A stretch of 64,000 nt of DNA from an uncultured Flavobacteriales bacterium (GTDB lineage Bacteria > Bacteroidota > Bacteroidia > Palsa-965), in assembly GCA_903873905.1 (NCBI GenBank), contig CAIQQJ010000057.1, positions 8,058 through 72,057 on the forward strand, written 5' to 3'. Below are positions 8,799 through 35,783 of the stretch, one piece after another. Both the position numbers and the translations under genes were made by a program. How positions within the stretch are numbered: the stretch's first letter is position 1; each line of letters opens with the position of its first letter. The notes beneath the pieces were generated by a model, which saw only the letters and a program-made list of their open reading frames with translations, made no database searches and had not been told where the DNA came from.

Positions 8799-9299
8799 AT
8801 GCATGTAAACTTTATTGTACTCTTAGTTGCAGCCTTTGTTCCGTTACTAATCGGATTTATCTGGTACAACAAAAATATTTTCGGAACAAGTTGGATAAAG
8901 GCTGCAGGAATAGATGAGGAGAAATCAAAAGGAGCGAATATGATTTTGATTTTTGGTCTTACCTATTTGTTCAGTTTCTTTTCCGCTTTCGCCATTCAGT
9001 TCATGGTGGTTCATCAGTATGCTGTTTATTCTGTATTGGCAAATGAGCCGGGAATAAAAGATTCTAATTCTGGAATTGCTATTTATCTAAAAGACTTCAT
9101 GGAAAAATACGGCCATAATTTCCGAACATTTAAGCATGGTGTTTTACATGGAACAATGGGAGGATTGACCTTAGCACTTCCTATAATTGGAATCAATGCA
9201 CTTTTCGAGAGGAGAGGGTTTAAATACATTGCCATAAATGTTGGATATTGGGTTGTAAGCATGGCCATCATGGGTGGAATAATTTGTCAGTTTGCCTAA
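8799..9299 (+). CDS. DUF1761 family membrane protein
   Basis: 166 aa with four TM segments. N-terminus FIVLLVAAFVPLLIGFIWYNKNIFGTSWIKAAG matches the DUF1761 signature (xxLAVLVAAxxxFxxGxxWYxxLFGxxWxKA). Confidence 0.55.
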   Translation: MHVNFIVLLVAAFVPLLIGFIWYNKNIFGTSWIKAAGIDEEKSKGANMILIFGLTYLFSFFSAFAIQFMVVHQYAVYSVLANEPGIKDSNSGIAIYLKDFMEKYGHNFRTFKHGVLHGTMGGLTLALPIIGINALFERRGFKYIAINVGYWVVSMAIMGGIICQFA

Positions 9300-10059
9300 T
9301 GGAATTCGTAGATTCGCATTGATTCGTAATTCATACAGTTTGGAAAATCTCACTCGCCTAAATAAATTCATCCGTGAAACAGGTTTCTGTTCACGTAGGG
9401 AGGCCGATCAGTTTATTGAAGACGGCAGAGTGACTGTCAATGGCAATGTTCCCGAACTTGGGACAAAAGTTTCTGCTGCAGATGATATTCGCATTGATGG
9501 AAAACCAATCAGTAAAAAAGAGGAGTTACATTATCTCGCATTCAATAAACCTGCAGGGATTATTTGTACAACCGAATTAGATATCAAACAAAATATAATC
9601 GACTACATAAAATATCCAACAAGAATATTCCCTATTGGGAGATTGGATAGAGCTTCTGAAGGATTGATTTTTCTAACGAATGACGGCGACATTGTAAATA
9701 AAATTCTCCGTGCTGGAAACAATCATGAAAAGGAATATCTCGTTACCGTTGATAAGCCTATCACTGATACATTCATAAGAAGAATGGGTAATGGTCTTCC
9801 AATTTTGGAAACTACAACGAAAAAATGTTTTGTTGAACAAACAGGAAAATTTCAATTTAGAATTATTCTCACACAGGGCTTGAATCGTCAGATTCGCAGA
9901 ATGTGTAATTATCTTGAATATGAAGTAAAGGCATTGCGTCGTTTTCGGATTATGAACATAACGTTGGAAGGATTGAAAGCGGGTGACTGGCGCGAATTCA
10001 CCAAAGAGGAAATGGAAACGATCAATAAATTAATTGCAAATTCCAGTAAGACCGCTTGA
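9292..10059 (+). CDS. rluF: Pseudouridine synthase, RsuA/RluF family (S4 domain + PseudoU_synth_2); true start uncertain
   Basis: S4 motif GFCSRREADQFIEDGRVTVNG. Catalytic-Asp motif GRLDRASEGLIFLTNDGD. ...REFTKEEM near the C-terminus is typical of RluF/RsuA. Confidence 0.75.
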   Translation: MPNGIRRFALIRNSYSLENLTRLNKFIRETGFCSRREADQFIEDGRVTVNGNVPELGTKVSAADDIRIDGKPISKKEELHYLAFNKPAGIICTTELDIKQNIIDYIKYPTRIFPIGRLDRASEGLIFLTNDGDIVNKILRAGNNHEKEYLVTVDKPITDTFIRRMGNGLPILETTTKKCFVEQTGKFQFRIILTQGLNRQIRRMCNYLEYEVKALRRFRIMNITLEGLKAGDWREFTKEEMETINKLIANSSKTA

Positions 10060-10066
10060 GGTTTTA

Positions 10067-12163
10067 TTAAACTCTCACACCTAATACTAGCACGTCATCA
10101 AGTTGCTCTAGATTTCCTTTCCAATTTAAAAATTCTTCCTCAATTCTTTTTGCTTGCTCATTCAATGGCAAGGAAGAAACTTTTGTGAGCAGTTCATTGA
10201 AATTTTTGGAAAGATATTTTTTCCCTGTCGTTTCACCAAACTGATCAACATAACCGTCGGAAGAAAGATAAAAGGTTGTTTTGTTGGTTAGAGGAATTTC
10301 AATTTCTGCAAAAGGGGCATCGCCTTCTTTTTTTTCACCCGCAACAGAGTAGCGATCGCCTTTCACAAAATGAAATCCAGTTTGATCAACATAATAGAGT
10401 GGGCGACCAGCTCCGGAAAAAACGGCTTTTTTGTAGGTTGTATCAATACACAACATGGCAATGTCCATTCCATCGCTGGTGTCACGTGCGTCAACATCCT
10501 TGTTCAAGGCGTGGATCATCAGCACGTGCAAACGGTCAAGAATTTGGGATGGACTTGGTTTGCCATCCTGCTCAATAATTTTATTCAACATGTTGATTCC
10601 AATAACAGAAACCAAGGCTCCAGGAACACCGTGACCTGTACAATCGGCGACAGCAATGTAAGTGCAGCCTTCTTTTTCTGCCAACCAATAAAAATCTCCA
10701 CTCACAATATCGCGTGGTTTGTTTAAAATGAAAGACTCTACGCCCGATTTTTTTAGAATGCGATCATCGGGCATAACTGATTGTTGAATCCTTCTTGCAT
10801 AGGTTATACTTGCAGTGATTTCTTCTTTCTGTTGTGAAATCTCCACATTCTTTTTTTTGAGGATGAAATTGTGTTTTTGCTTGTTGCGCAATATTAAAAA
10901 GATGACAACAAGGATAATGAAGAATAAAATACTTCCAGAAAGAAATAAAATTGTATTGCGTCGATTTGCTTCTATTGCGAGTTTTGTCTGTGTGTCGGCA
11001 ATCAACATCAACTTGTTCTTTTTGTCCAACTCATAACTCTTCCGCATTTTTTCCACAGCTTCCGTTTGCGCCTGCCCATGAATACTGTCATTCAGATTCA
11101 TGTATCTTCTCAAATTGTAAAGCGCAGGCTCAAATTGTTTTTTCTTTTCGTAGGAGAGGCTAATTCCGTAATAAAATTCCGATTCAACATCCCGAATTCC
11201 AATTTGTTTTGCAATAATTAAACCACGTTGATAATTTGCCAATGCTGAATCTGGATTTCCCAAATCTCGTTCTGTATTTCCGATTGAAAGAAAGGCTTTT
11301 GCAACACCTTCTGGATGGTTCAATTCAATATTGAGAATAAGCGCTTTTCGTGAATAATAGATAGAGGAGTCATAATTACCTAATGCTTTGAAACAATCGC
11401 CAATATTATCATAAGTTGAACCAAGTCTCATTTTCATTCCGTTGCTGGAAAATTTGGAGAGGGCAATTCTAAAATAATAAAGTGCAGAATCATGTTTATC
11501 CAATTGTTCAAACATGGCACCAATATTTCCAAGTAATGCAGCTTCCAATTCCTGGTTATTATTGCTTTCTTTATTTAATCTATATCCTTCTTCGTAGGTT
11601 TTGAGAGCATTGGAAATATCATTTTGCCTATAATAAATATTTCCAAGTGTGAGTTTACAAACAGCGATTCCAAATTTATTTTTTAATTTTTCCTGCAACT
11701 TCAAGGAACGAATGGCATAATCTGCTGCGTTGGGATAATCACCTGTGCGATTGTAAACATTTGCAATGTTTAAATCTATTTTCGCAACTTCCTCTTCTTT
11801 TCCCATCTGTTTCCATCGTGTAAGCGAGGAATCATAATAGAGTATTGCATTTTCGAATTGGCCGCTGTTTTCAAAGCTCTGACCACACATGTTATAACCA
11901 TTCGCAAGTCCATGGGAATAATTTGCTTTACGCGAAATGGCTATTGCCTTTAGTGCAAATTCCTTATGTTGTATAGGATCTGAATAGCGATATAAACTTG
12001 CCAGTTGATTATACGTATTTGCTAAACTTGTGTCGTGCTGCTCAATTTTCAAAAGGGCTTTTAGACTGTCTGCTTTTTTTTCGTTTTGTCCGAAGGCAAC
12101 AGAAGAGACAACCTGTATAAACAGACAAAATGTTAGAATTAATTTTAGAAGACGAGTTGTCAT
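10067..12163 (-). CDS. Membrane sensor: signal peptide, periplasmic TPR repeats, TM helix, coiled coil, PP2C/SpoIIE-type phosphatase
   Basis: TPR-like repeats (ALKAIAISRKANYSHGLANGYNMCGQSFENSGQFENAILYY etc.). TM segment ILFLSGSILFFIILVVIFLIL. PP2C motifs ITYARRIQQS, VADCTGHGVPGALVS, SSDGYVDQFGE and QLDDVLVLGVRV. Confidence 0.8.
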   Translation of the reverse strand: MTTRLLKLILTFCLFIQVVSSVAFGQNEKKADSLKALLKIEQHDTSLANTYNQLASLYRYSDPIQHKEFALKAIAISRKANYSHGLANGYNMCGQSFENSGQFENAILYYDSSLTRWKQMGKEEEVAKIDLNIANVYNRTGDYPNAADYAIRSLKLQEKLKNKFGIAVCKLTLGNIYYRQNDISNALKTYEEGYRLNKESNNNQELEAALLGNIGAMFEQLDKHDSALYYFRIALSKFSSNGMKMRLGSTYDNIGDCFKALGNYDSSIYYSRKALILNIELNHPEGVAKAFLSIGNTERDLGNPDSALANYQRGLIIAKQIGIRDVESEFYYGISLSYEKKKQFEPALYNLRRYMNLNDSIHGQAQTEAVEKMRKSYELDKKNKLMLIADTQTKLAIEANRRNTILFLSGSILFFIILVVIFLILRNKQKHNFILKKKNVEISQQKEEITASITYARRIQQSVMPDDRILKKSGVESFILNKPRDIVSGDFYWLAEKEGCTYIAVADCTGHGVPGALVSVIGINMLNKIIEQDGKPSPSQILDRLHVLMIHALNKDVDARDTSDGMDIAMLCIDTTYKKAVFSGAGRPLYYVDQTGFHFVKGDRYSVAGEKKEGDAPFAEIEIPLTNKTTFYLSSDGYVDQFGETTGKKYLSKNFNELLTKVSSLPLNEQAKRIEEEFLNWKGNLEQLDDVLVLGVRV

Positions 12164-12183
12164 AAAATATAACTAAGATCAAA

Positions 12184-14268
12184 TTAATCCACCATAAGGC
12201 CAATTACTAGTATGTCATCCACTTGTTCCAAATTACCTTTCCAATCAACGAATTCCATTTTCAGGATTTGTTTTTGTTTTTCACAATCGTGGGAATGAAT
12301 TTTTGATAACAATTCCCTGAAACGGGTGTATTTGAATTTCTTTCCAGCCGGTCCGCCAAATTGATCAGCGTATCCGTCAGTGAAAAGGTACACCATATCG
12401 CCTGGGAAAAGTTGGATTTCATGATTGGTATAATTGTCGGCAACGCCATCAACATTTATTCCAATTGGGAATTTGTCGGAATTCAATTGAATGAATTCGC
12501 CCTTTGTGATGATGTAAGCCGGATTAAAAGCCCCTGCGTATTGCAGTTTTCTTGTTGAAGGATCGTAAGAACAAATGGCAATGTCCATTCCATCCTTTAC
12601 GGTATTGCCCGCATCAGATTGCCGCAATAATTTGTTCACACCAAAATCCAAGTGATGCAAAATGTCGGAAGGTTTTGTCAATCCCATTTCATTTACCGCC
12701 TGATTCAACAAATTGAAACCGATTACTGACATCAATGCACCAGGAACACCATGACCTGTACAATCTACTGCAGAGAAAATGGAATACTTGTCTCTACTAT
12801 CCAGCCAATAGAAATCACCACTCACAACGTCTTTTGGTTCGTAAAGGATAAAACTATTTGGAAGGACACGTTTGATTTGGTTTGGTGGAGGTAGAATGGA
12901 ATCCTGAATTTTCTTGGCGTAATTGATACTGTCGGTAATTGATTTTTTTTGCATGGAAATTTCAATGTTATTCTTCTCCAGTGCAGTGTTGAGTTTTTCT
13001 TTTACACGATAGCGGTAAAAAATAAATGCAATAATGATAAGCAACAACAATATTCCAACGATCAACATGAGAATGTTTCGAGATGCTCCGACTTTTTCTG
13101 CTTTATGTTCCGCCTCGATCAATTCCAGTTTGTGCTGCTCTTTTTCCGAATCGTAACGGGATCGAAGTTGATTTACTGCATTTACACTTTCTTCCCCTTT
13201 GACACTATCGTTAAGTGATTTATAACGGTCCAAAAAATAATAGGCAGAATCAAATTTGTTTAGTCCGGCAAAAGCAATTGCAATTCCCTCATAACAACCC
13301 AAGCGCTGCGATTTGGATTCCATGATATAGGCAATACGCAATGCGTAGGAATAAAAATATAAAGCTGAATCATGATGGTTAAGGTCGTTTGATAAACTTC
13401 CAAGATTCTGAAATGTTGAACAAACTCCACTTGTGTCACCATTCACTCTTCGCAAAGTCAAACTTCTTCTGAATAATTCACCTGCCTCATTATATTTTTT
13501 TTGAAATTGACGAATGGTTCCGAGGTTATTGAGACAAACGGATAATTCATAAACGGCATTTTCCTTACTGAAAATAGTTTCCCCTTTTTGATAATAGTAG
13601 GCCGCGCTATCATAACTCTGCATTGCATTATAAACGTTGCCGATATTAGTTAATGCCCTTCCCTTAAATTCAGGTTGAGTGGGGAAATGATAAGCAATTC
13701 TCAATGCCTCACGATATTGTTTCAATGTAAGGTCAAAGGATTTTTGTTCAATCAAAACATTGCCAATGGCAAGATGCATGGCGAACTGTCCTTCATAATT
13801 GTTCAATATTTCATAAAACCTCAACGCTTGATAAGCGTGATCAACTGCTGCAGTATAATCTCCGATGAAATATTCATTGTTGGCCATGTTGCCAAGGGAT
13901 TTGGCTTGGCCCAGTGTGTCATTCAGTCTTGCGTAAACTTCATAAGATTGCTGTTGGTCCTTGATTGCTTCCACGAAATTTCCACCAGTTTGATCCGCAA
14001 GTCCGAGCATCAAATATGAAGTTGCAATTCCCCAATCATAATTTGACTTTTTCGCAAGAGAAAGTGCTTGCAGGGCATAACTTCTTTCGGATGTATCGTA
14101 TTGGTCATCCAATAATTTTGTGATTTTCACCAATACATTTACACGTTCAGTATCCTGCAAATTACCAGATAGGAGTTTTTTCAAACTGTCAACATTGTTC
14201 TGTGCCACAATGTTGCCCAATGAAAAACAGCAAATAAAAAAAATGATTGAGACGAAATGTTTTTTCAT
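12184..14268 (-). CDS. Membrane sensor: signal peptide, TPR repeats, TM, PP2C/SpoIIE-type phosphatase (paralog)
   Basis: TM segment ILMLIVGILLLLIIIAFIFY. PP2C motifs INYAKKIQDS, AVDCTGHGVPGALMS, FTDGYADQFGG and QVDDILVIGLMV. Confidence 0.8.
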   Translation of the reverse strand: MKKHFVSIIFFICCFSLGNIVAQNNVDSLKKLLSGNLQDTERVNVLVKITKLLDDQYDTSERSYALQALSLAKKSNYDWGIATSYLMLGLADQTGGNFVEAIKDQQQSYEVYARLNDTLGQAKSLGNMANNEYFIGDYTAAVDHAYQALRFYEILNNYEGQFAMHLAIGNVLIEQKSFDLTLKQYREALRIAYHFPTQPEFKGRALTNIGNVYNAMQSYDSAAYYYQKGETIFSKENAVYELSVCLNNLGTIRQFQKKYNEAGELFRRSLTLRRVNGDTSGVCSTFQNLGSLSNDLNHHDSALYFYSYALRIAYIMESKSQRLGCYEGIAIAFAGLNKFDSAYYFLDRYKSLNDSVKGEESVNAVNQLRSRYDSEKEQHKLELIEAEHKAEKVGASRNILMLIVGILLLLIIIAFIFYRYRVKEKLNTALEKNNIEISMQKKSITDSINYAKKIQDSILPPPNQIKRVLPNSFILYEPKDVVSGDFYWLDSRDKYSIFSAVDCTGHGVPGALMSVIGFNLLNQAVNEMGLTKPSDILHHLDFGVNKLLRQSDAGNTVKDGMDIAICSYDPSTRKLQYAGAFNPAYIITKGEFIQLNSDKFPIGINVDGVADNYTNHEIQLFPGDMVYLFTDGYADQFGGPAGKKFKYTRFRELLSKIHSHDCEKQKQILKMEFVDWKGNLEQVDDILVIGLMVD

Positions 14269-14271
14269 AAT

Positions 14272-17200
14272 CTATGTTTTATAACGAAATCCGATCACAA
14301 GAACATCGTCCACCTGTTCCAATTTTCCTTTCCAGTCCAAAAATGATTTTTCAAAAAAATCATATTGGGCAGGCATTGGTTGTAAGTGAATTTCCTGCAG
14401 CATTTCCTGAAAACGTTTTACCATGAGTTTTTTCCCTCTGTCCCCTCCGAACTGATCGGCATAACCATCGGAAGTAAGGTAAAAACAATCGCCATCATTT
14501 AATTCTGTTTCGTGTAATGTGTAAAATCTTTCATCACCACCATGATCACCTCCAATTGAATATTTATTCGCAGGAAAAACAATCATTTGGTTTTTTCTCA
14601 TCATCCAAAGTGGACGATTCGCACCTGCATAACTTAATTTTTTCTTTTCGAAATCCACAAGGCACAGTGAAATGTCCATGCCATCGCGCGTTTCTCCACC
14701 CATATCCTGGTGCAATGCCTGTCGAATTCTAATATGTAACAGATTCAGAATCTTATCAGGAGATTCAATGTTTTTTTCCAAAACAATTTCATTCAAGAGC
14801 GTATTGCCAATCATGCTCATGAATGCACCTGGTACACCGTGGCCCGTGCAATCCACACAAGCGATCCAAGTTAAATTGCCACGTTTCACAAACCAATAAA
14901 AATCCCCGCTTACAATGTCGCGCGGATGAAATAGAACGAATGAATCAGGAAATGAATTATGTATTTCTGATTGCATTGGAAGAATGGCATGTTGAATTCT
15001 TTCAGCATAATGAATGCTGTCTTGAATACCCTTGTAGGCATATTCAAGTTCAGAATTCTGAATTTCTATTTTCACTTTTTGTTCAACCACCTCGGCTGTT
15101 CTTTCTTGTACAATAATTTCCAGCTTTTCCTTTTGTGTACGCAAGCGACGAGCACTCAAACGAACAGAAATGAAAATGATGCCGAGAAAAGCAAGAACAA
15201 ATAAAATGTAAGCCAATGTGGTTCTATACCAAGGAGGAAGAATGGTGAAAGTGTATGAACCTTCCTTGCTAGTTCGTCCAAGGAGATTGTACATTTTTAC
15301 TTTGAAAGTATATTTTCCTTCGGAAAGATTTGTGTAACTCTTCTCAGGATTTCCTTTTACTGGATACCAAGTAGTGTCAAACCCTTCGAGTTTGTACAAA
15401 TAATTTGTTTCACCATCCAATTCATAATAAGGGGCGGAAAATTTGAAAACAATCGAATTGAATTGATAGGGAATTGCCTGCGCATTGGTGAAATTGATGT
15501 TGTCGGAACCGAAATAGATCGTGGAATCTTTTCCAATTTTTACGGAAGAAATTATGGTGTTGAAAGGGATGTCGCTTGGAGGGTTGATGTTGCTGTTATA
15601 ACGCAACAGAATCGAATTTGATAAAAGCCAAGCAATTCCGTTTGGTTCAGAATAGACATATTGAAGTTCGTTTCCGCCGAAACAATATCCAATAGGCAAT
15701 TTTGTACGGAAGAATTTGTTTTTCGAATCCATTCCATAGAAGGTGATTAATGGAGAGATATTTGTTTGGAGAAATAAGGAATAATCAAAGGGTGGTTTTA
15801 ATCCAATAAAATTCCCGTCAAAAAGCAGGTCGAATATTTCCGGCGCATTGGAAAAACATTTTGATTTAGGATCAGTAGCTCGTGAAGGAATATATCTGTA
15901 AGCTTTTGTTCCACTGAAAAAATAAGTGGAATCACCGACAACAACCATATATGTTTGTTCCATCGGTAGTCCATTTGTTGTGTCATAACGTTGAATGGTA
16001 AAATTCGTGTCGTTGACATTGAACCGGGCATGGATGACCTCCTTGAATCGATTCGCACACCAGAAATCATATTGGTCATTTTTCTTCGAAGCATAATTGA
16101 TTCTGCCAATCCTGATAATATCTTCTCCAGGAATTTCATAGTGACGAATTAATTTCGGAAGGTGTCCGTCAATAAAACTGTAAACAGACATTCCGCCTTT
16201 TTCCATCGCAATGAATTCATCTGGATTAGGTGATTCACAAACACGGTTGATGTATTGGGACGAAAACTTTTCAATTTTGCCATTATGGGAATAAAAAAGC
16301 CCTTCGCTTGTGCTGATGAATAAATCGCCTTTTAATATGGTGAGGTTCCATACTTCTGTATGTGGAATTTCTTCCACCCTTTTAAATCGCAAATTGCTTG
16401 GAGAACCATTCACATTGGAACATTCAATGAATAATCCTTCCGTTGTACCTGCAAAAAGATTTCCCTGATATCGAATCAGCCATTGCAAGGTTCCGGAAAA
16501 ACCCGACTGGTCGCTGAAAAAAAGCGCAGGTGAATTGTAGCTGACCTTGCTGATTCCGTTATTATGCATCAGCCAAATGTTTTTCTGTCGATCAACAAAA
16601 ACATCTGCAATCGATTCATCACCGAGTCCAGATTTTTTATTCAGAATCTCAATCAGTTGAGCATTCCGATTATAAAATCCAATTCCAGATCGTGTAAAAA
16701 CAGCAAAGGTGGAATCATTCACCCATTCACAACCTAATGCACCATGATAGCTTGAAAATGTATCGGCTTTTTCCGACAATGTAGAAAACCAGGTGACCGA
16801 TCTTGAATTGAGTTTTGGATCCATTACAAAAAAGCCGCTGTCGCTGCTCACAATAAGACTCTTCTGATTTTTCCATGGAATCATTCCCAGAAGGCGGGTG
16901 TTTACAAATCGTTCACCACCCGGGCACAATTGCAATTTGTCATTGACAATTTCCATTAATCCAACGGTTCGTTGCCGCACGAATAATTTTCCGTTAGATT
17001 GAAACATCAATGCAAATCCCTTTTCGCGTGAAGCTTCAATAGTGCCAATTATTTTTTTCTCCTTGCAAATGAAAATACGTTCTGTTGATTGGAAATAGAT
17101 TTTTCCATTTGCACCAAAAACTTTCCAGATGTCTGAAAATGTTTTTTGGTTCGAATCGAGCGATGTGGTTAATGATACAAAACCCAATTTGCCATTAACA

Positions 17201-17529
17201 GAATCGCGTTGCAAATATCCGAACTCACCAACTGCGCCAACATAAATAATTCCAGTTGTGCTATCAATCATGATTTGTCGATTGGCAGAACCGGATTTTA
17301 CAAGAACATTTTGAAAAGTTGTACCGTCAAAAACAAAAATGGAAGACGTTCCTGCAAAATAGAGTAACCCATTTTTATCTTGCGTCGCCTGCCACATTTG
17401 GTTGAAGCCAAGGTAATCTTTCGGTGTATAATTTTTAATGTGATATCCCGAACGCTGCGCAAACACTTCCCTCCCTGAAAAAATCAGAAGGAAAACAAAC
17501 AACAAACTATTCTTGATTGCAGAATTCAT
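14272..17529 (-). CDS. Membrane sensor: signal peptide, Reg_prop beta-propeller + Y_Y_Y domain, TM, PP2C/SpoIIE-type phosphatase (paralog of 4113..7424)
   Basis: Y_Y_Y region YLYKLEGFDTTWYPV...LSEGKYTFKVKMYN. TM segment LAYILFVLAFLGIIFISV. PP2C motifs IHYAERIQHA, CVDCTGHGVPGAFMS, TSDGYADQFGG and QVDDVLVIGFRY. The start codon overlaps the upstream gene stop (ATGA). Confidence 0.8.
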   Translation of the reverse strand: MNSAIKNSLLFVFLLIFSGREVFAQRSGYHIKNYTPKDYLGFNQMWQATQDKNGLLYFAGTSSIFVFDGTTFQNVLVKSGSANRQIMIDSTTGIIYVGAVGEFGYLQRDSVNGKLGFVSLTTSLDSNQKTFSDIWKVFGANGKIYFQSTERIFICKEKKIIGTIEASREKGFALMFQSNGKLFVRQRTVGLMEIVNDKLQLCPGGERFVNTRLLGMIPWKNQKSLIVSSDSGFFVMDPKLNSRSVTWFSTLSEKADTFSSYHGALGCEWVNDSTFAVFTRSGIGFYNRNAQLIEILNKKSGLGDESIADVFVDRQKNIWLMHNNGISKVSYNSPALFFSDQSGFSGTLQWLIRYQGNLFAGTTEGLFIECSNVNGSPSNLRFKRVEEIPHTEVWNLTILKGDLFISTSEGLFYSHNGKIEKFSSQYINRVCESPNPDEFIAMEKGGMSVYSFIDGHLPKLIRHYEIPGEDIIRIGRINYASKKNDQYDFWCANRFKEVIHARFNVNDTNFTIQRYDTTNGLPMEQTYMVVVGDSTYFFSGTKAYRYIPSRATDPKSKCFSNAPEIFDLLFDGNFIGLKPPFDYSLFLQTNISPLITFYGMDSKNKFFRTKLPIGYCFGGNELQYVYSEPNGIAWLLSNSILLRYNSNINPPSDIPFNTIISSVKIGKDSTIYFGSDNINFTNAQAIPYQFNSIVFKFSAPYYELDGETNYLYKLEGFDTTWYPVKGNPEKSYTNLSEGKYTFKVKMYNLLGRTSKEGSYTFTILPPWYRTTLAYILFVLAFLGIIFISVRLSARRLRTQKEKLEIIVQERTAEVVEQKVKIEIQNSELEYAYKGIQDSIHYAERIQHAILPMQSEIHNSFPDSFVLFHPRDIVSGDFYWFVKRGNLTWIACVDCTGHGVPGAFMSMIGNTLLNEIVLEKNIESPDKILNLLHIRIRQALHQDMGGETRDGMDISLCLVDFEKKKLSYAGANRPLWMMRKNQMIVFPANKYSIGGDHGGDERFYTLHETELNDGDCFYLTSDGYADQFGGDRGKKLMVKRFQEMLQEIHLQPMPAQYDFFEKSFLDWKGKLEQVDDVLVIGFRYKT

Positions 17530-18692
17530 TTCAATTTGTCAAGTGCTTGTTCAATATCAGCCGCGATATCTGTAATGTGTTCAAGTCCCACAGAAACTCT
17601 TACAAGTCCTGCAGTGATTCCTGTTTTCTGGCGTTCCTCTTCGGTAAGTTTGGAATGTGTGGTGGAAGCTGGATGTGTAATAGTTGTGCGCGTGTCTCCC
17701 AAATTCGCAGTTAACGAACACATTTTTATACTGTCAAGAAATTTTCTTCCATGCGCAAGACCTCCTTTTAATTCGAAGGTTACAATTCCACCACCGGATT
17801 TCATTTGTTTTTTTGCAATGGCATAGTGTGGATGCGAAAGCAGAAATGGATACTTCACACTTGCTATCAGCGGATGATGCTGCAACATGGAAGCCAGTTT
17901 CAATGCATTTTCTGAATGACGTTCCATTCGAAGATGAAGTGTTTCCAAACTTTTTGAAAGTACCCAAGCATTGAAAGGTGAAAGTGATGGACCTGTGCTT
18001 CTGCAGAACAAATAAATTTCCTTGATCAATTCTTTTTTTCCTAGAACAGCACCACCAAGAACTCGGCCTTGTCCATCAATGAATTTGGTTGCCGAATGTG
18101 TGATGAGATCGGCGCCATAGTGTGCGGGTTGTTGTAGTGCTGGTGTTGCAAAACAATTGTCAACGTTCAACAACACTTTATGTTTTTTCGCCAATTGTCC
18201 GAGCCATTCCAAATCCACTAAATCTAAACCGGGATTCGTTGGTGTCTCTACGAAAATCATTTTTGTATTTTTCTGAATCAACGCTTCCCAAGTTTCAGGT
18301 TTGTTGATGTCTGCATAGGTGAATGTGATTCCCCAGCGCACCAAATATTTTGAAATGACCGTATGCGTTGATCCGAAAATGGAACTGCAGGCAAGCAAGT
18401 GATCACCACTTTTCAGAAATGCCAGAAATGATGCAACGATTGCCGACATTCCGGACGCCGTAGCAAAACCAGCTTCTGTTCCTTCGAGCGCACACATTTT
18501 ATCCACAAACTCATTCACATTTGGATTTGAAAAACGGGAATAAATATTGTCTTCATTTTCATCCGCAAATGTTGCACGCATGTGTTCCGAATCATCGAAT
18601 ACAAAACTTGACGTTAGAAATAACGGAACAGAATGTTCATGTTCCTGTGAACGTTCGTTTTGAATTCGAATGGCTTTTGTTTCTGGCTTCAT
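17526..18692 (-). CDS. PLP-dependent Cys/Met-metabolism enzyme (O-acetyl/O-succinylhomoserine sulfhydrylase or cystathionine gamma-synthase family)
   Basis: 388 aa. Motifs typical of this family: SRFSNPNVNEF, SATKFIDGQGRVLGGAVLG (PLP-binding Lys region) and the C-terminal GLVRVSVGLEH. Lies next to metX, consistent with direct sulfhydrylation. Confidence 0.8.
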   Translation of the reverse strand: MKPETKAIRIQNERSQEHEHSVPLFLTSSFVFDDSEHMRATFADENEDNIYSRFSNPNVNEFVDKMCALEGTEAGFATASGMSAIVASFLAFLKSGDHLLACSSIFGSTHTVISKYLVRWGITFTYADINKPETWEALIQKNTKMIFVETPTNPGLDLVDLEWLGQLAKKHKVLLNVDNCFATPALQQPAHYGADLITHSATKFIDGQGRVLGGAVLGKKELIKEIYLFCRSTGPSLSPFNAWVLSKSLETLHLRMERHSENALKLASMLQHHPLIASVKYPFLLSHPHYAIAKKQMKSGGGIVTFELKGGLAHGRKFLDSIKMCSLTANLGDTRTTITHPASTTHSKLTEEERQKTGITAGLVRVSVGLEHITDIAADIEQALDKLK

Positions 18693-18728
18693 TTTATTTT
18701 TGAGTTCGGGGTAAGTAGTTACGAGCAG

Positions 18729-19160
18729 TTATGAAATTAGATTTCCATTCACACGAACTTCCCAAGTAATTTTTGCATCCGCTTTTTCTAACGTTGCAGC
18801 AACAGAACAATATTTTTCCATCGATAATTGAACAGCACGTTTTGCTTTTTCGGGTTCGATGGTTCCGTCGAGATGGTAAATCACGTGAACGTCTTGCCAA
18901 AGAGCGGGTTCTTTTTCTTTTTCCCTTTCACCGTCAATTTCTATTCTGAAATCTGTGATTTCCTGTTTTTGTTTTTTCAGGATGATGATGATATCAACTG
19001 CGCTACATCCACCAAGCGCCATCAATAAACTTTGCATCGGACGAATGCCTTTTCCTTTTCCTCCCTGTTCAGGAGCGATATCGAAGATGACAGAATTTCC
19101 CTCTTCACTTTTCGCTTCAAATTGAAAAGCATCGTCAAGGCGTTGTAGTTGTACTTTCAT
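18729..19160 (-). CDS. osmC: OsmC/Ohr-family peroxiredoxin-like protein (the ORF opens at 19223; the likely start is MKVQLQRL at 19160)
   Basis: OsmC-like core ...PMQSLLMALGGCSAVDIIIILKK...KYCSVAATLEKADAKITWEV with the two conserved Cys. Only 36 nt from the downstream sulfhydrylase gene. Confidence 0.7.
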   Translation of the reverse strand: MKVQLQRLDDAFQFEAKSEEGNSVIFDIAPEQGGKGKGIRPMQSLLMALGGCSAVDIIIILKKQKQEITDFRIEIDGEREKEKEPALWQDVHVIYHLDGTIEPEKAKRAVQLSMEKYCSVAATLEKADAKITWEVRVNGNLIS

Positions 19161-19250
19161 AGGAGTTTTTCGAGATTTCAAAGATAGAAAAGCTTTACTC
19201 CCCAAGGGACTTCCAAGAAGCAAAACTCATTATCTTCGACCAATCTTTCA

Positions 19251-20261
19251 ATGAAAACAGACATTTTTCATAGCAAAAAGCCTTTTGCGACTGAATCTGG
19301 AATAACCCTTTCAGGTTTAGACTTGTCGTATTGTACTTCGGGAACCTTCATTGCAGGGAAAAGTAAAGTGGTTTGGGTTTGTCACGCCCTTACTGCAAGT
19401 GCCGATTGTGTGGATTGGTGGCCCGATTTGATTGGTGTTGGACAAGCAATTGATCCAGAAGAATATTTTATTGTTTGCATGAATATTCCTTCGTCGTGCT
19501 ATGGATCTTCGGGACCGATGAGTATTAATCCCGAAAACAATTCACCTTATTTCGGCGAATTTCCGGTTTTTACAATTCGTGATATCGTGCATGCAACAAT
19601 TTTATTGCGTGAACATTTGGGAATTGAAAAAATTCATTTGTTGATTGGTGGATCGATGGGCGGTTATCAATGTGTGGAGTGGGGCATCATGGAAAGTGAT
19701 CGAATTGAAAATCTTGCATTGGTTGCGACGGCTGCGCGTGAGAGCGCTTGGGGAATTGCAATTCATACCGCGCAGCGATTGGCCATTGAAACGGATCCCA
19801 CCTATGGAGAAAAAAATGCGAATGCTGGTGCGAAAGGATTAAAAACGGCACGCGCAATTGGAATGTTGACTTACAGAAATTATCAGGCATTTGTAAATAC
19901 ACAAACAGATACGGATGATCGAATAGAAAATTTCCGTTCCGAATCTTACATTCATTATCAAGGTGAAAAATTGGTGAAGCGTTTTAATGCATATTCCTAT
20001 TTTCTATTGACAAAATCAATGGATTCTCACAACGTTGCGCGTGATCGCGGAAGAGTGGAAGATGTGTTGAAAAAAATAAAAGCAAAAACTATTTGCATCG
20101 GCATCAGCAGTGATAATCTCTGTCCTGTGAATGAGCAGAAATTTTTGGCAGAGCATATTCCCAATGCAAAATTTGTGGAAATCGATTCTCCGTTTGGTCA
20201 CGATGGTTTTTTGGTGGAAGGAGAAAAGATTGGTTCTCTTATCATAGACTTTCTCAAGTAG
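19251..20261 (+). CDS. metX: Homoserine O-acetyltransferase
   Basis: Alpha/beta-hydrolase nucleophile elbow GGSMGGYQCVEWG and the characteristic N-terminal LxYxTxG...VVWVCHALT region. 336 aa. Confidence 0.85.
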   Translation: MKTDIFHSKKPFATESGITLSGLDLSYCTSGTFIAGKSKVVWVCHALTASADCVDWWPDLIGVGQAIDPEEYFIVCMNIPSSCYGSSGPMSINPENNSPYFGEFPVFTIRDIVHATILLREHLGIEKIHLLIGGSMGGYQCVEWGIMESDRIENLALVATAARESAWGIAIHTAQRLAIETDPTYGEKNANAGAKGLKTARAIGMLTYRNYQAFVNTQTDTDDRIENFRSESYIHYQGEKLVKRFNAYSYFLLTKSMDSHNVARDRGRVEDVLKKIKAKTICIGISSDNLCPVNEQKFLAEHIPNAKFVEIDSPFGHDGFLVEGEKIGSLIIDFLK

Positions 20262-20534: not shown

Positions 20535-21761
20535 TCACCAAATCATCTTCACTTTTTCGGTTCGAAAAATTGTGGAAGTGCCTAGTTTCCCAACTTCGTT
20601 ATTTTTTCCATCAGCACCAACAAAACCAGCTTCTCCACTTTGTTTGCTCAACATTCCATAGGCTCCTCTTCCGCCCCTTCCTGCGTATCCGCCAGCTCCT
20701 TTGTTGCCAGATTTTCCACCGCTGTTGTTGACGACAATTTTATTTTTCCATTCCACAGCAGAAGAATCAAGATGAATGATTGCTACGCCACCATTTCCAC
20801 CACGACCTGCATTTCCACCATTTCCGCCGAATCCACCATTTCCGCCATTACCACTTGGGTTTTTTGTGGAATCAACACGGAGATCAATGTTAGGAGCGTA
20901 GGGTCCGTTGAACAAAACATTTTGCTGATAAAATTCTATGTGCTGAGGGTAGGGCATTGGTTCAACATAAGAAGCGCCAGCACCATCTGTACCTTTTTCT
21001 CCATTGCCACCATTTCCGCCATCACCACCATTGCCACCGCTTACGTCAACAAGAAGTGAACCTACATCAGGATCAATCAAAAAAACAGAATGAAGATTAT
21101 TGCAATGATTGATTACGAGAACACTTATCATTCTTTTTTCAGAAACCATTTTTGCTTTTACGAAAACATCAGCGATACAACCATCTGCTCCCGTTTCTCC
21201 ATCCGTTCCGTTTTGTCCTTGATGGCCATCGTATGATTTCCAATTTTTTGTTGTGTCAAGTCCATGAAGTTCTTCACCTGAAAGGCCATTAAAACCACCA
21301 AGACCATTTTGGCCTTTGCAATTGACAATGAATTTTGTTTTGTAGGAAATAGGCAATTCAATTTCCTGTTTCAGTTCAGGATAAAAAAAAGGTGTGACGG
21401 AAATTTTCAGAAAATCTTTTGCTATTCGCGGATCAGTTGAAACAATTATTTCCCCACGATCAAAGGTTCCCCCTTCAACATGAACGGAATAACTGTTCCA
21501 ATTCACAAATCCATTACAAAGTCCACGTGTTTTTAATTCTTTATGGAAAGGCGTTTCAGCAATAACGCCAATGGAAAAACTTGTTCCTGGAAAAATTGTT
21601 AGACTGTCTGTGGTAATGATTTTGATTTTGCTTACTTCGTAATTGTGCAGCTGGTCGGAAGTAAAATCATTGTAAGGATTAATGTGATTGAAGTGAAATA
21701 TTTTGCACGCAGGAACAATGACAAGCACGAACACGAATAGAAAAAATGTTCTCGGTTTCAT
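20535..21761 (-). CDS. Secreted collagen-like (Gly-X-Y triple-helix repeat) protein
   Basis: Signal peptide MKPRTFFLFVFVLVIVPA. Three runs of perfect GXY triplets: GQNGTDGETGADG, GGNGGDGGNGGNGEKGTDGAGAS and GNGGNGGFGGNGGNAGRGGNGG. Confidence 0.6.
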   Translation of the reverse strand: MKPRTFFLFVFVLVIVPACKIFHFNHINPYNDFTSDQLHNYEVSKIKIITTDSLTIFPGTSFSIGVIAETPFHKELKTRGLCNGFVNWNSYSVHVEGGTFDRGEIIVSTDPRIAKDFLKISVTPFFYPELKQEIELPISYKTKFIVNCKGQNGLGGFNGLSGEELHGLDTTKNWKSYDGHQGQNGTDGETGADGCIADVFVKAKMVSEKRMISVLVINHCNNLHSVFLIDPDVGSLLVDVSGGNGGDGGNGGNGEKGTDGAGASYVEPMPYPQHIEFYQQNVLFNGPYAPNIDLRVDSTKNPSGNGGNGGFGGNGGNAGRGGNGGVAIIHLDSSAVEWKNKIVVNNSGGKSGNKGAGGYAGRGGRGAYGMLSKQSGEAGFVGADGKNNEVGKLGTSTIFRTEKVKMIW

Positions 21762-21870: not shown

Positions 21871-24027
21871 TCACTTTATTATTACCCCTGCCAACAAAAC
21901 ATCATCCACCTGATCGAGCTCCCCTTTCCAATCATCAAAAGTTTTTTCAATACTGTTTTTTTGTTGAGCTAGATTCTTGCCGCTGATTGTCAATAAGGTT
22001 TCCTTGAGTTGACTGTATTTGAATTTTTTCCCACTTGCGCCACCAAACTGATCGGCAAATCCATCTGTGAACATATAGAATGCATCAAGGTCTTTCAGTG
22101 GAATGGTATGAACGGTGAAAGGTTTCAAGTGTCCCTGAAAAACACCAACAGGTTGACGATCGCCTTTTATTTCGTGCATTTCTCCATTTGTAATATAATA
22201 CAACGGGTTATTTGCGCCAGCAAATTTTAACACATTATTTTCTTCATCAATGCAACAGAGGGATATGTCCATTCCGTCTTTTACACCTTTCATGGAGAGC
22301 AAATTTCCTTCGGGCCTATCAAAGTTGGTTTGTTTAAGTGCAGCAACAACCACATTTGCCATTTGTGTAAGAATTTCTCCTGGATCAGTAATGTGTTTTT
22401 CCTTTACGACTTCATTCAGTGCGGTATTCCCAATCAATGACATGAATGCGCCAGGAACGCCATGGCCTGTGCAGTCTACCACTGCCACAATTTTTGTTTT
22501 TCCGCTTTTCCCAATCCACCAGAAATCCCCACTAACAATATCTCTAGGACGGAAAAACACAAATGAACCAGGAAAAAGTTCGCGCATTTCTTCTTGTGTT
22601 GGCAGAACGGCGAATTGAATTCGTTTTGCATAGTTGATACTGTCGAGCATATCGTGATGTTGCTCGTCAACAATTTTTTTCTGCAAGGCAATTTCATTTT
22701 TCTGTTTTTCAAGAATAACATTTGCTTGTTTTGATTTTGTTGCATTTCTATAAATGACAAAAACAAGAATCACCAACAACACCAGAGCAGATCCCATAAA
22801 CAGATTTCTTCTTTTCTGTTCATCTAGCGCAACAGCTTTCAGATTGTTTTCCTTGGCAAGTGATTCAAAGGCTTTCTGTCGTCTCTCCGTATCAAATTTT
22901 GTATTTAGCTCATTTACCTGTTCGCTGTTTTTTTCATTAAAAATGCTGTCATTGATTTCATAATATTGTTTGTAATAATCCAATGCCTTTTTATCATCAC
23001 CTAGTTTCTCATATGCTTTGGAAAGCGATAGGTAATCAGACTTCATCATATCGCGATAGTCAAGTTCACGTGCGAGAGCGAGACTTTTGTTTTCGTACAG
23101 AATAGCCTGATCAAATTTTCCGTCTTCAATGTATAAATCTCCAAGATTATTGCAGATTAATGCAATCCCATTCTTGTCTCCAATTTTCTCACGAATTTCC
23201 AAAGCGCGATTGTAATAATCAATTGCTTTCGGAATGTTATTTTGATAGTTATAAATATTTGCAAGGTTATTCAGACAAACAGCAATGCCACGAAGATTGT
23301 TGCTTTTTGAAAAAAGCGCCAATGACTTTTCATAATAGTCAATTGCTTTTATGGTGTCCGTTAAATCCAAATACGTATTTCCAATTCGGGCATATGAATT
23401 TGCAACACGAGATTCATTACCTGCCTTTTGATATAAACGCAAACCAGTTTCTTCATAACGTAAAGCATCTTTATAATTTTTCTGATCATTATAAATGACA
23501 CCAATATTCAAATAAGAATTTGCGGCTTCTTCTACATTTTTTTCTCCAATATTGGAAGTCAATGCTTGATTGTAGGAAATCAAGGCTTTGGGATAATCAC
23601 CTTTCTCTCGATAAATGAATCCCAATTTGTTCATTGCAAAAATCACATTATTACTGTCTCCAACTGCTCTTGCCAATTTTATGGATTTATGAAAAATATT
23701 CAAAGCCGTATCACTTTCTCCGGAGTAATAAAGTGCGTACGCAAGATTATTCATCGCTTCAGATTTTTCGAGATTGTTCTTTCTTTTTGTTGCAATCTCA
23801 AGTGCTTGTTTCGCGAAATAGATAGATGATTTATTATCAGTTGGAGAAAGCTTCACACTGATTTGATTGCAAATTCGAAACTTTGCTGTGTCCGATCCTG
23901 CGTTTTTGACAAGTGAAAGCAAGGAATCGTTTTGGGAAATGGCAAGACGAGGAATTGCCAATAATAAAAAAAAGAAAAAATAAAATATTGCAGAAAATGG
24001 AATACGATTTGAAAGATGGAAATTCAT
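21871..24027 (-). CDS. Membrane sensor: signal peptide, TPR repeats, TM, PP2C/SpoIIE-type phosphatase (paralog)
   Basis: Many TPR units (ALNIFHKSIKLARAVGDSNN..., AIDYYNRALEIREKIGDKNG...). TM segment LFMGSALVLLVILVFVIY. PP2C motifs INYAKRIQFA, VVDCTGHGVPGAFMS, FTDGFADQFGG and QVDDVLLAGVII. Confidence 0.8.
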   Translation of the reverse strand: MNFHLSNRIPFSAIFYFFFFLLLAIPRLAISQNDSLLSLVKNAGSDTAKFRICNQISVKLSPTDNKSSIYFAKQALEIATKRKNNLEKSEAMNNLAYALYYSGESDTALNIFHKSIKLARAVGDSNNVIFAMNKLGFIYREKGDYPKALISYNQALTSNIGEKNVEEAANSYLNIGVIYNDQKNYKDALRYEETGLRLYQKAGNESRVANSYARIGNTYLDLTDTIKAIDYYEKSLALFSKSNNLRGIAVCLNNLANIYNYQNNIPKAIDYYNRALEIREKIGDKNGIALICNNLGDLYIEDGKFDQAILYENKSLALARELDYRDMMKSDYLSLSKAYEKLGDDKKALDYYKQYYEINDSIFNEKNSEQVNELNTKFDTERRQKAFESLAKENNLKAVALDEQKRRNLFMGSALVLLVILVFVIYRNATKSKQANVILEKQKNEIALQKKIVDEQHHDMLDSINYAKRIQFAVLPTQEEMRELFPGSFVFFRPRDIVSGDFWWIGKSGKTKIVAVVDCTGHGVPGAFMSLIGNTALNEVVKEKHITDPGEILTQMANVVVAALKQTNFDRPEGNLLSMKGVKDGMDISLCCIDEENNVLKFAGANNPLYYITNGEMHEIKGDRQPVGVFQGHLKPFTVHTIPLKDLDAFYMFTDGFADQFGGASGKKFKYSQLKETLLTISGKNLAQQKNSIEKTFDDWKGELDQVDDVLLAGVIIK

Positions 24028-35063: not shown

Positions 35064-35783
35064 CTATGAATTGATGGCGATAAACGGTGCAACAACGTGC
35101 TGCAACTTTTCCAAGTTCAATAAATTAATATTTTGTCCGGATGCAGTAATGAGTTTCTCCTCCTCAAATTCTGATAATTGTTTTACCAAGCGGTCAACAG
35201 AAATCCCAGCAATTGAGGCCAGGTCTTTTCGGGAGATCTTTATATTAAGTGTGCTGTTGTTTTTTTCAAGTCCAAATTCATTGATCATCATTAAAAGGCA
35301 ATCGGCTGTTTTCTCACGTACATTCATTTCAGCCATATTTCGAAGTCGCCTTTCGGTTTCATTCAGCTGAATGATGTAAGTCCAAAGAATCTTCAAATGC
35401 AATTGGTGATTTTCTTGAAGCAACTGGATAAAAACACTACTGGGGATAAAATGTAGGAGTGAATCCTCTAATGCAGTTGCACAAAGAACATAGTTTGAAT
35501 TTTGAATCGCTCCTCTAAATCCAATAATACCACCTTCCTTTGAAATGGAAACGATAGGATTGTTTGAATGTATGCCATCTTTCCAAAGTTTCACTTTCCC
35601 TTTTTCAATCAAATAAACGAAATGAGCGGGTTGAAAATCAAAAAAGATGGCTTCATCCTTTTTAAAGAAATGGTGTTTTGAGTTTTGTTGAAGAATTTGC
35701 TTCTGTTTTGTTGTACAGAACTCCTCCAATAAGGGTATTTTATTTATGACATCTGTGCTAATAATACCTGGCGGGGTTTTCAT
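35064..35783 (-). CDS. Crp/Fnr-family transcriptional regulator (cNMP-binding + HTH)
   Basis: cNMP-binding beta-roll region (...DEAIFFDFQPAHFVYLIEKGKVKLWKD...GGIIGFRGA). C-terminal HTH SRKDLASIAGISVDRLVKQLSEFEEEKLI. Confidence 0.8.
   Translation of the reverse strand: MKTPPGIISTDVINKIPLLEEFCTTKQKQILQQNSKHHFFKKDEAIFFDFQPAHFVYLIEKGKVKLWKDGIHSNNPIVSISKEGGIIGFRGAIQNSNYVLCATALEDSLLHFIPSSVFIQLLQENHQLHLKILWTYIIQLNETERRLRNMAEMNVREKTADCLLMMINEFGLEKNNSTLNIKISRKDLASIAGISVDRLVKQLSEFEEEKLITASGQNINLLNLEKLQHVVAPFIAINS

Follow-up and report, generated by a model that had tools for sequence, protein, structure and literature searches.

Direct sulfhydrylation through metX(W) and metZ has been described in Pseudomonas and beta-proteobacteria (Alaminos & Ramos 2001, cited in PMC4239095). 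The locus analysed here, part of a 64-kb stretch of DNA from an uncultured bacterium (hereafter the window), likewise encodes a MetX-like homoserine O-acyltransferase and a MetZ-type O-acylhomoserine sulfhydrylase. It differs from that arrangement, as summarised in the citing paper, in that metX is divergent, an OsmC-family gene stands ahead of metZ and three phosphatase genes stand behind it, and in having no metW, leader RNA or riboswitch. In Ca. Pelagibacter ubique, a SAM-V riboswitch controls osmC/bhmT/metY genes, and osmC is the most induced gene under sulfur limitation (PMC5069961). There too an OsmC-family gene is joined with genes of homocysteine or methionine synthesis, in our case by gene order only; phylum, partner genes and mode of control are all different, and our locus shows no riboswitch.

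The phosphatases have counterparts of two kinds. The sensor half of the first (receptor phosphatase 1) is predicted to share with the hybrid two-component sensors BT4663 and BT3049 (4a2l, 3v9f) a two-propeller plus Y_Y_Y periplasmic fold followed by one transmembrane (TM) helix. Its output, however, is a PP2C domain where those proteins have histidine kinase, receiver and AraC domains, its identity to these two proteins is just 14-18%, and a Pfam scan finds in it none of the kinase, receiver or HTH domains of a Bacteroides HTCS. On the output side, all three phosphatases resemble SiaA of the Pseudomonas aeruginosa SiaABCD system and RsbU/SpoIIE in having a PF07228 cytoplasmic domain with its metal-binding motifs intact. 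Unlike SiaA, they fall far under the cut-off of the SiaA equivalog model NF038263 (191.8, 205 and 210.5 bits against 700, the match being limited to the C-terminal ~260 positions) and carry other sensor domains, and neither the window nor any of nine annotated related loci has a SiaB or SiaC gene. Chlamydia RsbU spans the membrane and joins a PP2C output to a periplasmic sensor domain. It works in a defined RsbV/RsbW partner-switching system (PMC11619594). The phosphatases described here are similarly membrane receptor PP2Cs with an extracytoplasmic ligand-binding domain, but their sensor folds are different and no RsbV/RsbW partners are visible at this locus. Literature searches found no paper describing receptor-type PP2Cs whose sensors are HTCS-like or of TPR type, and nothing relevant on Y_Y_Y combined with SpoIIE, on OsmC combined with a sulfhydrylase or on Bacteroidetes met regulons.

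The methionine module and its control region

Five genes follow one another on the minus strand. The unit opens with osmC (18729..19160, 143 aa) and continues with metZ (17526..18692, 388 aa), which encodes the PLP-dependent sulfhydrylase, receptor phosphatase 1 (Y_Y_Y + SpoIIE; 14272..17529, 1085 aa) and receptor phosphatase 2 (TPR + SpoIIE; 12184..14268, 694 aa), closing with receptor phosphatase 3 (TPR + SpoIIE; 10067..12163, 698 aa). The junctions measure 36 nt, a 4-nt ATGA stop/start overlap read from the sequence (metZ/receptor phosphatase 1, 17526..17529, minus strand), 3 nt and 20 nt, and metX (19251..20261, plus strand, 336 aa) lies divergently adjacent to osmC, 90 nt away. An earlier note on this DNA had given the same five reading frames, junction sizes and divergent metX, and its domain calls (OsmC, PF02566; Cys_Met_Meta_PP, PF01053; Y_Y_Y with SpoIIE; TPR with SpoIIE twice) proved correct. 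At the far end a pseudouridine synthase gene (9292-10059, plus strand) converges on the unit, its stop 7 nt from that of receptor phosphatase 3; upstream of metX, a fourth TPR-PP2C receptor phosphatase gene (21871..24027, minus strand) belongs to a separate transcription unit. The osmC reading frame is extendable to a TTG at 19223; its predicted start is the ATG at 19160, which is common to the orthologues, and a conserved -7 box falls within the extension.

The OsmC-family protein matches PF02566 with 72.9 bits (cut-off 27.5) and NF008009 with 76.7, under the latter's cut-off of 138; among solved structures it is nearest in sequence to 1vla, 2e8c and 1ml8, and we assign it on these comparisons to the YhfA/TM0919-like group. 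C52, C118 and P41 never vary across 53 metZ-linked orthologues, and 94% of these sequences have R40. The domain, the two catalytic cysteines and the conserved arginine place the protein in the OsmC/Ohr thiol peroxidase family, peroxidase activity being predicted at most. MetZ scores 436.7 bits with PF01053 and 535.3 with NF006003, above the cut-off of 522, and by this NCBIfam cut-off is an O-succinylhomoserine sulfhydrylase with a putative acyl-substrate specificity. The MetX-like protein matches PF00561, and its best NCBIfam matches are MetX models that stay under their cut-offs (TIGR01392, 337.6 against 500; NF001209, 311.4 against 331); we infer the metX function from this best match together with the conserved metZ context. 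When metagenomic loci with a MetZ 62-80% identical were compared, osmC stood ahead of metZ in 50 of 63, and metX was divergent in 24 of 47. Divergent metX and osmC-metZ form a widespread Bacteroidota module that exists without any phosphatase.

The divergent control region (19161..19250, 90 nt) contains two mirrored -7 boxes around a short inverted repeat, TATCTTCG serving metX and TATCTTTG (19179..19186, minus strand) serving osmC. The latter is an exact match to the Bacteroidetes-type TAnnTTTG, 26 nt upstream of the osmC ATG, and the sole one at a promoter-like distance for the five-gene unit, of which it is the presumed promoter. It is invariant in an alignment of the window with L001, L006, L007 and L009, lies at 25-29 nt in L012 and L013, and has a comparable box upstream of osmC in most of 30 other loci. 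The mirrored boxes account for the RNA fold z-score of -2.36 for this region. A terminator-like hairpin flagged at 19228-19190 was discarded, as it is made up of these boxes and a short repeat between them, and the promoter lies downstream of it. An operator palindrome between the promoters was also discarded, the weak TCCC..GGGA / TCTCA..TGAGA repeat being shared by five close loci but not by the clade at large. The earlier note had proposed a search for SAM or methionine regulatory elements upstream of osmC, and the search came back empty: the only Rfam family at gathering score across the whole window is one tRNA, and at E <= 10 the interval 19050-19400 gives noise matches and nothing more. 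With the -7 box 26 nt before the ATG, the predicted osmC leader of ~15-20 nt would be too short to leave room for a riboswitch.

Anatomy of the receptor phosphatases

All three phosphatases match PF07228 (71.7, 79.2 and 54.4 bits, cut-off 25) and contain the DCTGHG, (S/T)DG and C-terminal DD motifs; with this domain score and intact metal-binding Asp motifs they are predicted members of the SpoIIE family of PPM/PP2C phosphatases. Receptor phosphatase 1 consists of a signal peptide, two beta-propellers, a Y_Y_Y Ig-like domain, a TM helix (771-789), a coiled coil and the PP2C/SpoIIE domain, with sequence matches to PF07495 and PF07228; its Reg_prop repeats are at the edge of detection, scoring 16.6 bits where the cut-off is 20.4. 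A Foldseek search with its AlphaFold model (pLDDT 86.3) returned the BT4663 periplasmic sensor (4a2l, E 6e-30), BT3049 (3v9f, TMt 0.70) and the PP2C domain of SiaA (6k4e, TMt 0.91, 32% identity), and the model thus shows a BT4663-like periplasmic double-propeller/Y_Y_Y sensor coupled to a SiaA-like PP2C domain. Receptor phosphatases 2 and 3 each have a signal peptide, a TPR array (TPR_12 in receptor phosphatase 2), a TM helix (399-417 and 405-423, respectively) and PP2C/SpoIIE, an order that identifies them as putative periplasmic TPR-PP2C receptors.

That the phosphatases might respond to redox or sulfur status, as the earlier note had suggested, is not supported. Their sensors are extracytoplasmic, one BT4663-like and two of TPR type, and a search for redox- or sulfur-sensing domains in the three proteins found none. 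Nor are they poor in sulfur: methionine plus cysteine makes up 3.0-3.4% of their residues, while paralogues range over 2.8-3.8% and the window averages 3.6%, and the idea of a sulfur-sparing composition was dropped for want of a signal relative to the paralogues.

We also looked for the partners with which phosphatases of this family work elsewhere. A Pfam scan of all large ORFs of the window identified no STAS, RsbW or SiaB/SiaC-type protein, phmmer with SpoIIAA, RsbV and RsbW queries (approximate sequences) gave a best E of 0.12, and STAS, RsbW or SiaC partners are not annotated in any of nine related loci. A partner-switching module, with substrate and cognate kinase close by, is therefore not seen in the window or the related loci; the partners could be encoded elsewhere in the genome.

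Distribution of the phosphatase cassette

The order metZ-phosphatase recurs in 11 other loci, among them L001, L006, L007, L009, L010, L012 and L092-L095, and is seen only in part in L093, which is cut within metZ, and in L012, which is cut shortly past the phosphatase start. Counting the window, phosphatase genes directly follow metZ in 12 of 13 members of the clade, and the order holds even where the first phosphatase is 43% identical; the number of trailing phosphatases and the flanks differ. Elsewhere, none of 57 other metZ loci has a same-strand PP2C gene downstream of metZ. The combination, which the earlier note had called unusual, is indeed so, and the synteny that it proposed to look for in related genomes is there.

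The one clade member that lacks the cassette, L013, groups with the cassette loci at 97.5% bootstrap, and when it is left out of the grouping the support is 6%. Its metZ is followed by ~200 nt that have no homologue in the cassette loci, and then by a stretch, containing a hairpin terminator, that matches the pre-SprB intergenic region found elsewhere behind the cassette. From this nested position, L013 appears to be a clean secondary loss of the cassette in which the met module was kept. A first, unbootstrapped tree had placed it outside the cassette clade, with insertion after the split, a result overturned with more loci and bootstraps.

Phosphatases of this type also occur in other settings. 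Full-length orthologues of receptor phosphatase 1 lie away from met genes in L008 and L011, and in L014, L015 and L029 a different PP2C paralogue adjoins metZ in convergent orientation. The latter arrangement was considered as an older form of the association and rejected, the L014 protein having its better match in the paralogue encoded at 4002-7424 of the window (535 bits, against 292 bits for the operon phosphatase); the arrangement suggests chance adjacency in PP2C-rich genomes. Since six receptor-type PP2C genes were counted in the 64-kb window, adjacency alone is weak evidence for a common function.

Probable read-through transcription and the question of a link to methionine

We lean towards reading the locus as an old met module joined by a promoterless cassette that lives on read-through and encodes ordinary sensors not needed for methionine synthesis. 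In the first layer, metX would make O-acylhomoserine, and the osmC-like gene and metZ would turn it into homocysteine by direct sulfhydrylation, driven in both directions by back-to-back Bacteroidetes-type promoters in an intergenic region of ~65-100 nt. The second layer would be the receptor PP2C cassette, one Y_Y_Y/propeller type followed by one or two TPR types, set behind metZ a single time in the ancestor of one uncultured clade. Having no promoter of its own, it would be transcribed by read-through from the osmC promoter, so that phosphatase levels should rise and fall with methionine promoter activity, and translation of the first phosphatase may proceed by termination-reinitiation at the ATGA overlap. 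The extracytoplasmic ligand-binding domains (glycan-sensor-like propellers and TPR arrays) would control the cytoplasmic SiaA/RsbU-like PP2C domain, which presumably dephosphorylates a phospho-Ser/Thr partner encoded elsewhere, and the phosphatases would be dispensable for methionine synthesis.

The five genes probably form one transcript, driven from the osmC promoter. In agreement with the earlier note, which saw no hairpins in the junctions, no terminator-like site was found in any of the four, and their folds, computed with 50 nt on either side, do not exceed shuffled sequences in stability (z = +0.15, +0.10, +0.12 and -0.46). The 4-nt overlap between metZ and the phosphatase is retained at 9 of 11 related junctions (the -4 geometry is found in L001, L006, L010, L092, L093, L094 and L095, and as TTGA in L012), the spacing being different in L007 (+5 nt) and L009 (+13 nt). 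Tiny or overlapping, unstructured junctions and a kept overlap argue for the co-transcription and translational coupling that the earlier note had taken the junctions to imply, and both stand as predictions from sequence. Kept order by itself is no proof of an operon, because the whole ~20-kb neighbourhood is syntenic in the clade, with TPR3-PP2C upstream and SprB/PKD/CHU_C downstream; homologues of the fourth TPR-PP2C are at the same position in L001, L006, L007, L013, L094 and L095. Between 10067 and 19250 on the minus strand the only exact -7 boxes are that of osmC and one inside receptor phosphatase 3, and in six loci the 600 nt ahead of each phosphatase start contain no exact TAnnTTTG. 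Only ~10 of 43 window genes are preceded by the consensus, however, so that failing to find it says little against internal promoters. The genes could on this account be separate, merely adjacent units, with non-consensus promoters in the 3' ends of metZ and the phosphatases and tight spacing due to genome compaction, which we regard as rather unlikely. Most window genes that clearly need a promoter of their own lack the exact motif, so the scan is blind to non-consensus promoters, and the genes do contain sigma-70-like matches (such as 17534..17506 and 12218..12191, minus strand), but these are not of the Bacteroidetes promoter type and such matches are overall only 2.3 sd above shuffles. A search for a promoter embedded in the 3' end of metZ gave no signal of excess synonymous-site conservation, which over the last ~150 nt in nine loci is 0.40-0.46 against a mean of 0.50. 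Separate units are also difficult to reconcile with junctions that leave next to no non-coding space (36, -4, 3 and 20 nt), with the conserved stop/start geometry and with the consensus boxes that do occur at unlinked orthologues of phosphatase 1 (in L011 at 19 nt, in L008 at 115 and 148 nt), the metZ-linked orthologues having none.

Read-through would account for the arrangement with no role for the phosphatases in methionine metabolism; that the cassette has long been kept beside metZ, its overlap intact, down to 43% identity, could just as well result from selection for a genuine functional connection. The phosphatases might then belong to a methionine or sulfur circuit, their production gated by methionine limitation, or their activity controlling the phosphorylation of MetX, MetZ, OsmC or a met regulator upon an envelope or extracellular cue. 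The persistence of junction and order in nearly the whole clade while flanks and trailing phosphatases vary, and the lack of a separate promoter at the metZ-linked phosphatase, would fit such coupling. We nevertheless consider it unlikely, as the sensors are periplasmic modules of glycan-sensor-like or TPR type that lack any redox- or sulfur-binding domain, the proteins show no sulfur-sparing, L013 lost the cassette cleanly and yet kept its met module, all 57 other metZ loci do without the cassette, full-length orthologues are found unlinked to met genes, and the PP2C gene beside metZ at three further loci is a different, convergent paralogue. The more specific version, in which glycan- or envelope-sensing PP2Cs made only when the met promoter is active set the Ser/Thr-phosphorylation of a Met-pathway enzyme, a regulator or the OsmC-like protein, seems to us distinctly improbable; if true, such wiring would make homocysteine synthesis in this Bacteroidota lineage answer to an extracellular cue.

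Should the single transcript of the two-layer reading be confirmed, the locus would be a clean natural case of signalling genes that captured a biosynthetic promoter and, over a long divergence, went on depending on it, and would help in understanding the growth of operons. As the count in this window illustrates, these uncultured Bacteroidota are very rich in receptor PP2Cs with HTCS-like or TPR sensors. A lead of wider reach is the OsmC/YhfA-family protein ahead of metZ in about four fifths of related loci, which, together with the Pelagibacter osmC placed independently under a SAM riboswitch, points to an unrecognised thiol-dependent helper of homocysteine synthesis.

Gene order of the metZ-phosphatase locus and its history

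An ORF scan reproduced exactly the coordinates that the earlier note had given for five minus-strand genes, and Pfam matched its domain calls: an OsmC protein (18729-19223 as scanned, with the ATG at 19160 as the supported start), a PLP enzyme with a Cys_Met_Meta_PP domain (388 aa, 17526-18692), phosphatase 1 with Y_Y_Y and SpoIIE domains (1085 aa, 14272-17529), and phosphatases 2 (694 aa, 12184-14268) and 3 (698 aa, 10067-12163), both with TPR and SpoIIE domains. The spacings of 36 nt, a 4-nt ATGA overlap, 3 nt and 20 nt were all recovered. Terminator-like sites fall in none of the four junctions, and their folding shows no gain over shuffled sequence (z = +0.15, +0.10, +0.12 and -0.46). With NCBIfam, the PLP enzyme scores 535 bits against a cut-off of 522 on the O-succinylhomoserine sulfhydrylase (MetZ) model; the closest models for the divergent gene (19251-20261) are those of MetX, whose cut-offs it does not reach.

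The earlier note had also called for a synteny check. When the 1085-aa phosphatase was used as a query and the contigs of its orthologues were inspected, the same gene order was found again in relatives. Ten loci carry metX / osmC - metZ - Y_Y_Y-PP2C - TPR-PP2C(s), within each contig's reach, with phosphatase identities to the window of 72% (L001), 62% (L006), 55% (L007), 54% (L009), 54% (L012, a partial, metZ-based match), 51% (L092), 49% (L010), 48% (L093), 46% (L094) and 43% (L095). The 4-nt metZ/phosphatase overlap is present at 9 of 11 junctions, including that of the window (ATGA in eight, TTGA in L012), the two exceptions being L007 (+5 nt) and L009 (+13 nt). The trailing phosphatases differ in number, with two, one, or a truncated SpoIIE-only gene.

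We also fetched 80 metagenomic loci (L012-L091) whose MetZ relatives are 62-80% identical, and located the counterparts of the window proteins on each. Of the 63 loci with sufficient sequence, 50 have osmC directly upstream of metZ in the same orientation, and metX is divergent in 24/47. Downstream of metZ, a same-strand PP2C gene occurs in none of 57 loci and a convergent one in three of the more distant ones, all encoding propeller/Y_Y_Y-PP2C proteins on the minus strand (L014, 11166-14318, where the 3' ends overlap by 11 nt; L015, ~1656-2840; L029, ~11743-13077). The L014 protein scores 535 bits to the window paralogue at 4002-7424 vs 292 bits to the operon phosphatase, and its adjacency to metZ is an independent one.

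In a bootstrapped NJ tree built on MetZ and OsmC, the nine cassette loci included group together with L013 at 97.5% bootstrap, vs 6% for the cassette loci without L013; the high-GC locus L012, in which the cassette is present, is sister at 63%. L013 itself lacks the cassette. The ~200 nt after its metZ have no counterpart in the cassette loci; next comes a stretch, containing a hairpin terminator, that matches at 69-73% over ~210-230 nt their intergenic region between the last phosphatase and the SprB/PKD/CHU_C adhesin gene; no phosphatase remnants were detectable in the region after metZ. The simplest reading is a single acquisition, kept in 12 of the 13 sampled lineages (the window included), and one clean loss, in L013, where the methionine module stayed intact.

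A non-coding block is conserved upstream of the adhesin gene (L013 ~11425-11470, and the pre-SprB intergenic regions of L006, L007, L010, L092, L094 and L095). It holds a hairpin terminator, AAGGTTTCA...TGAAACCTTTTTT, and a perfect palindrome, ATTATGCATGCATAAT, matched on both strands in several loci, which may be an operator.

Receptor phosphatases of the window

In each of the three operon phosphatases, a signal-like segment at the N terminus and one TM helix precede a PP2C domain in which the DCTGHG, DG and DD motifs are intact. An AlphaFold model of the 1085-aa protein, made from 40 homologues (pLDDT 86.3), predicts two beta-propellers, a Y_Y_Y Ig-like domain, a TM helix with coiled coil, and an alpha/beta PP2C domain. 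By Foldseek, its periplasmic part resembles the Bacteroides HTCS sensors BT4663 (4a2l, E 6e-30) and BT3049 (3v9f, TMt 0.70), and its cytoplasmic part resembles SiaA-PP2C (6k4e, TMt 0.91, 32% identity). SiaA equivalog identity was ruled out for the phosphatases (~200 bits vs a cut-off of 700). Genes of the STAS, RsbW or SiaB/SiaC type were found neither in the window nor among the annotated relatives; the substrate would presumably be encoded elsewhere.

Six SpoIIE-type receptor genes, two propeller/Y_Y_Y and four TPR, occupy ~23% of the bases in the 64-kb window (4002-7424(+), three genes in 10067-17529(-), 21871-24027(-) and 41904-43889(-)), so that the prior chance of one bordering any operon is high. 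A literature search returned no paper on Y_Y_Y/TPR-PP2C receptors in Bacteroidota. For the 1140-aa propeller-PP2C, the TTG listed as start lies within the preceding ORF (2843-4159), giving an overlap of 158 nt (4002-4159), and there is an exact -7 box at 3997-4004; the real start is probably further downstream. Directly downstream of the TPR-PP2C gene at 21871-24027 is a gene for a 408-aa protein (20535-21761(-)) with no match in Pfam or NCBIfam; L007 has two homologues of it (57-58% identity) in tandem at the corresponding position. Two ~585-aa TPR proteins without a recognisable output domain (37396-39159(-) and 40095-41846(-)) flank a PKD/T9SS protein and adjoin the TPR-PP2C gene at 41904-43889, and could be receptors that signal through an undescribed output. 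A small ORF at 58658-59002(+) matches PF05635, the family of 23S rRNA-intervening-sequence proteins (81.5 bits), yet the window is without rRNA.

Predicted promoter of osmC and probable transcription of the phosphatase genes

The window is Bacteroidota-like (GC ~38%, with T9SS, SprB and CHU_C genes), and we therefore chose as search motif the Bacteroidetes -7 box TAnnTTTG, the consensus from Bacteroides and Flavobacterium promoters. The motif is rarer in the window than expected (45 vs 78 +/- 9) and three-fold enriched in intergenic DNA (15/45 in 11.7% of bases), a pattern consistent with spurious promoters being selected against. From 10067 to 19250 the minus strand holds just two copies, one at 19179-19186, 26 nt ahead of the osmC ATG, and one within the last gene. 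The osmC box is identical across an alignment of the window and four relatives, one like it stands upstream of osmC in the majority of 30 other loci, and metX is served by a mirrored box on the opposite strand. Because the box lies so close to the ATG, the osmC leader would be only ~15-20 nt. The search for SAM or methionine elements upstream of osmC, proposed in the earlier note, gave no Rfam match, which together with the short predicted leader excludes a SAM riboswitch. A structured element flagged there proved to be the palindrome of the two divergent -7 boxes. Elsewhere in the window are tandem genes for 239-aa Crp/Fnr-type regulators (cNMP_binding + HTH_Crp_2; 35064-35783(-) and 36259-36978(-)), the second with an exact -7 box 58 nt upstream.

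It is reasonably probable that all five genes form a single transcription unit: with the widespread metX / osmC-metZ module as starting point, a promoter-less receptor PP2C cassette would have been added behind metZ in one uncultured Bacteroidota clade, and the osmC promoter would drive the five genes as one, with translation of phosphatase 1 coupled to metZ. In six loci checked, no exact -7 box lies within 600 nt upstream of the linked phosphatase genes, and two full-length orthologues without met-gene linkage have their own (19 nt from the ATG in L011, 43% identity; at 115 and 148 nt in L008, 50%). An exact box precedes only ~10 of the 43 window genes. Synonymous-site conservation in the last 150 nt of metZ (0.40-0.46 vs a gene mean of 0.50) shows no excess, which speaks against a conserved embedded promoter. 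That independent internal promoters drive the phosphatase genes is rather unlikely.

A true methionine or sulfur signalling link is, in our judgement, improbable. The conserved gene order is by itself no proof of selection on the operon, since synteny in the clade extends over the ~20 kb around the locus and includes both a fourth TPR-PP2C gene, upstream of metX, and, downstream, the adhesin gene. The suggestion that the phosphatases respond to redox or sulfur status was not borne out: their sensor domains are extracytoplasmic ligand-binding folds without a redox or sulfur-related domain, their Met+Cys content (3.0-3.4%) is no lower than that of paralogues (2.8-3.8%) or the window mean (3.6%), and the methionine module persists without the cassette, as in L013. 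All parts of the locus are from known families; their arrangement is lineage-specific.

OsmC as a probable part of the methionine module

All metZ-linked orthologues of OsmC examined (n = 53) have both cysteines, and 94% retain the arginine; the solved structures closest to the protein are those of TM0919 (1vla), Aq_1549 (2e8c) and E. coli YhfA (1ml8). It makes more sense as a component of the methionine module than as a stress gene placed there by chance. Pelagibacter offers an independent precedent for OsmC tied to methionine genes: there osmC, like bhmT and metY, is preceded by a SAM-V riboswitch, and no gene responds to sulfur limitation with a stronger induction (PMC5069961). Our literature search returned nothing treating OsmC together with sulfhydrylases. 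The OsmC-MetZ partnership is the most worthwhile lead from this locus. The linkage to metZ, the invariant cysteines and the SAM-V-controlled osmC of Pelagibacter suggest that this OsmC/YhfA-family protein may have an unrecognised role in homocysteine synthesis.
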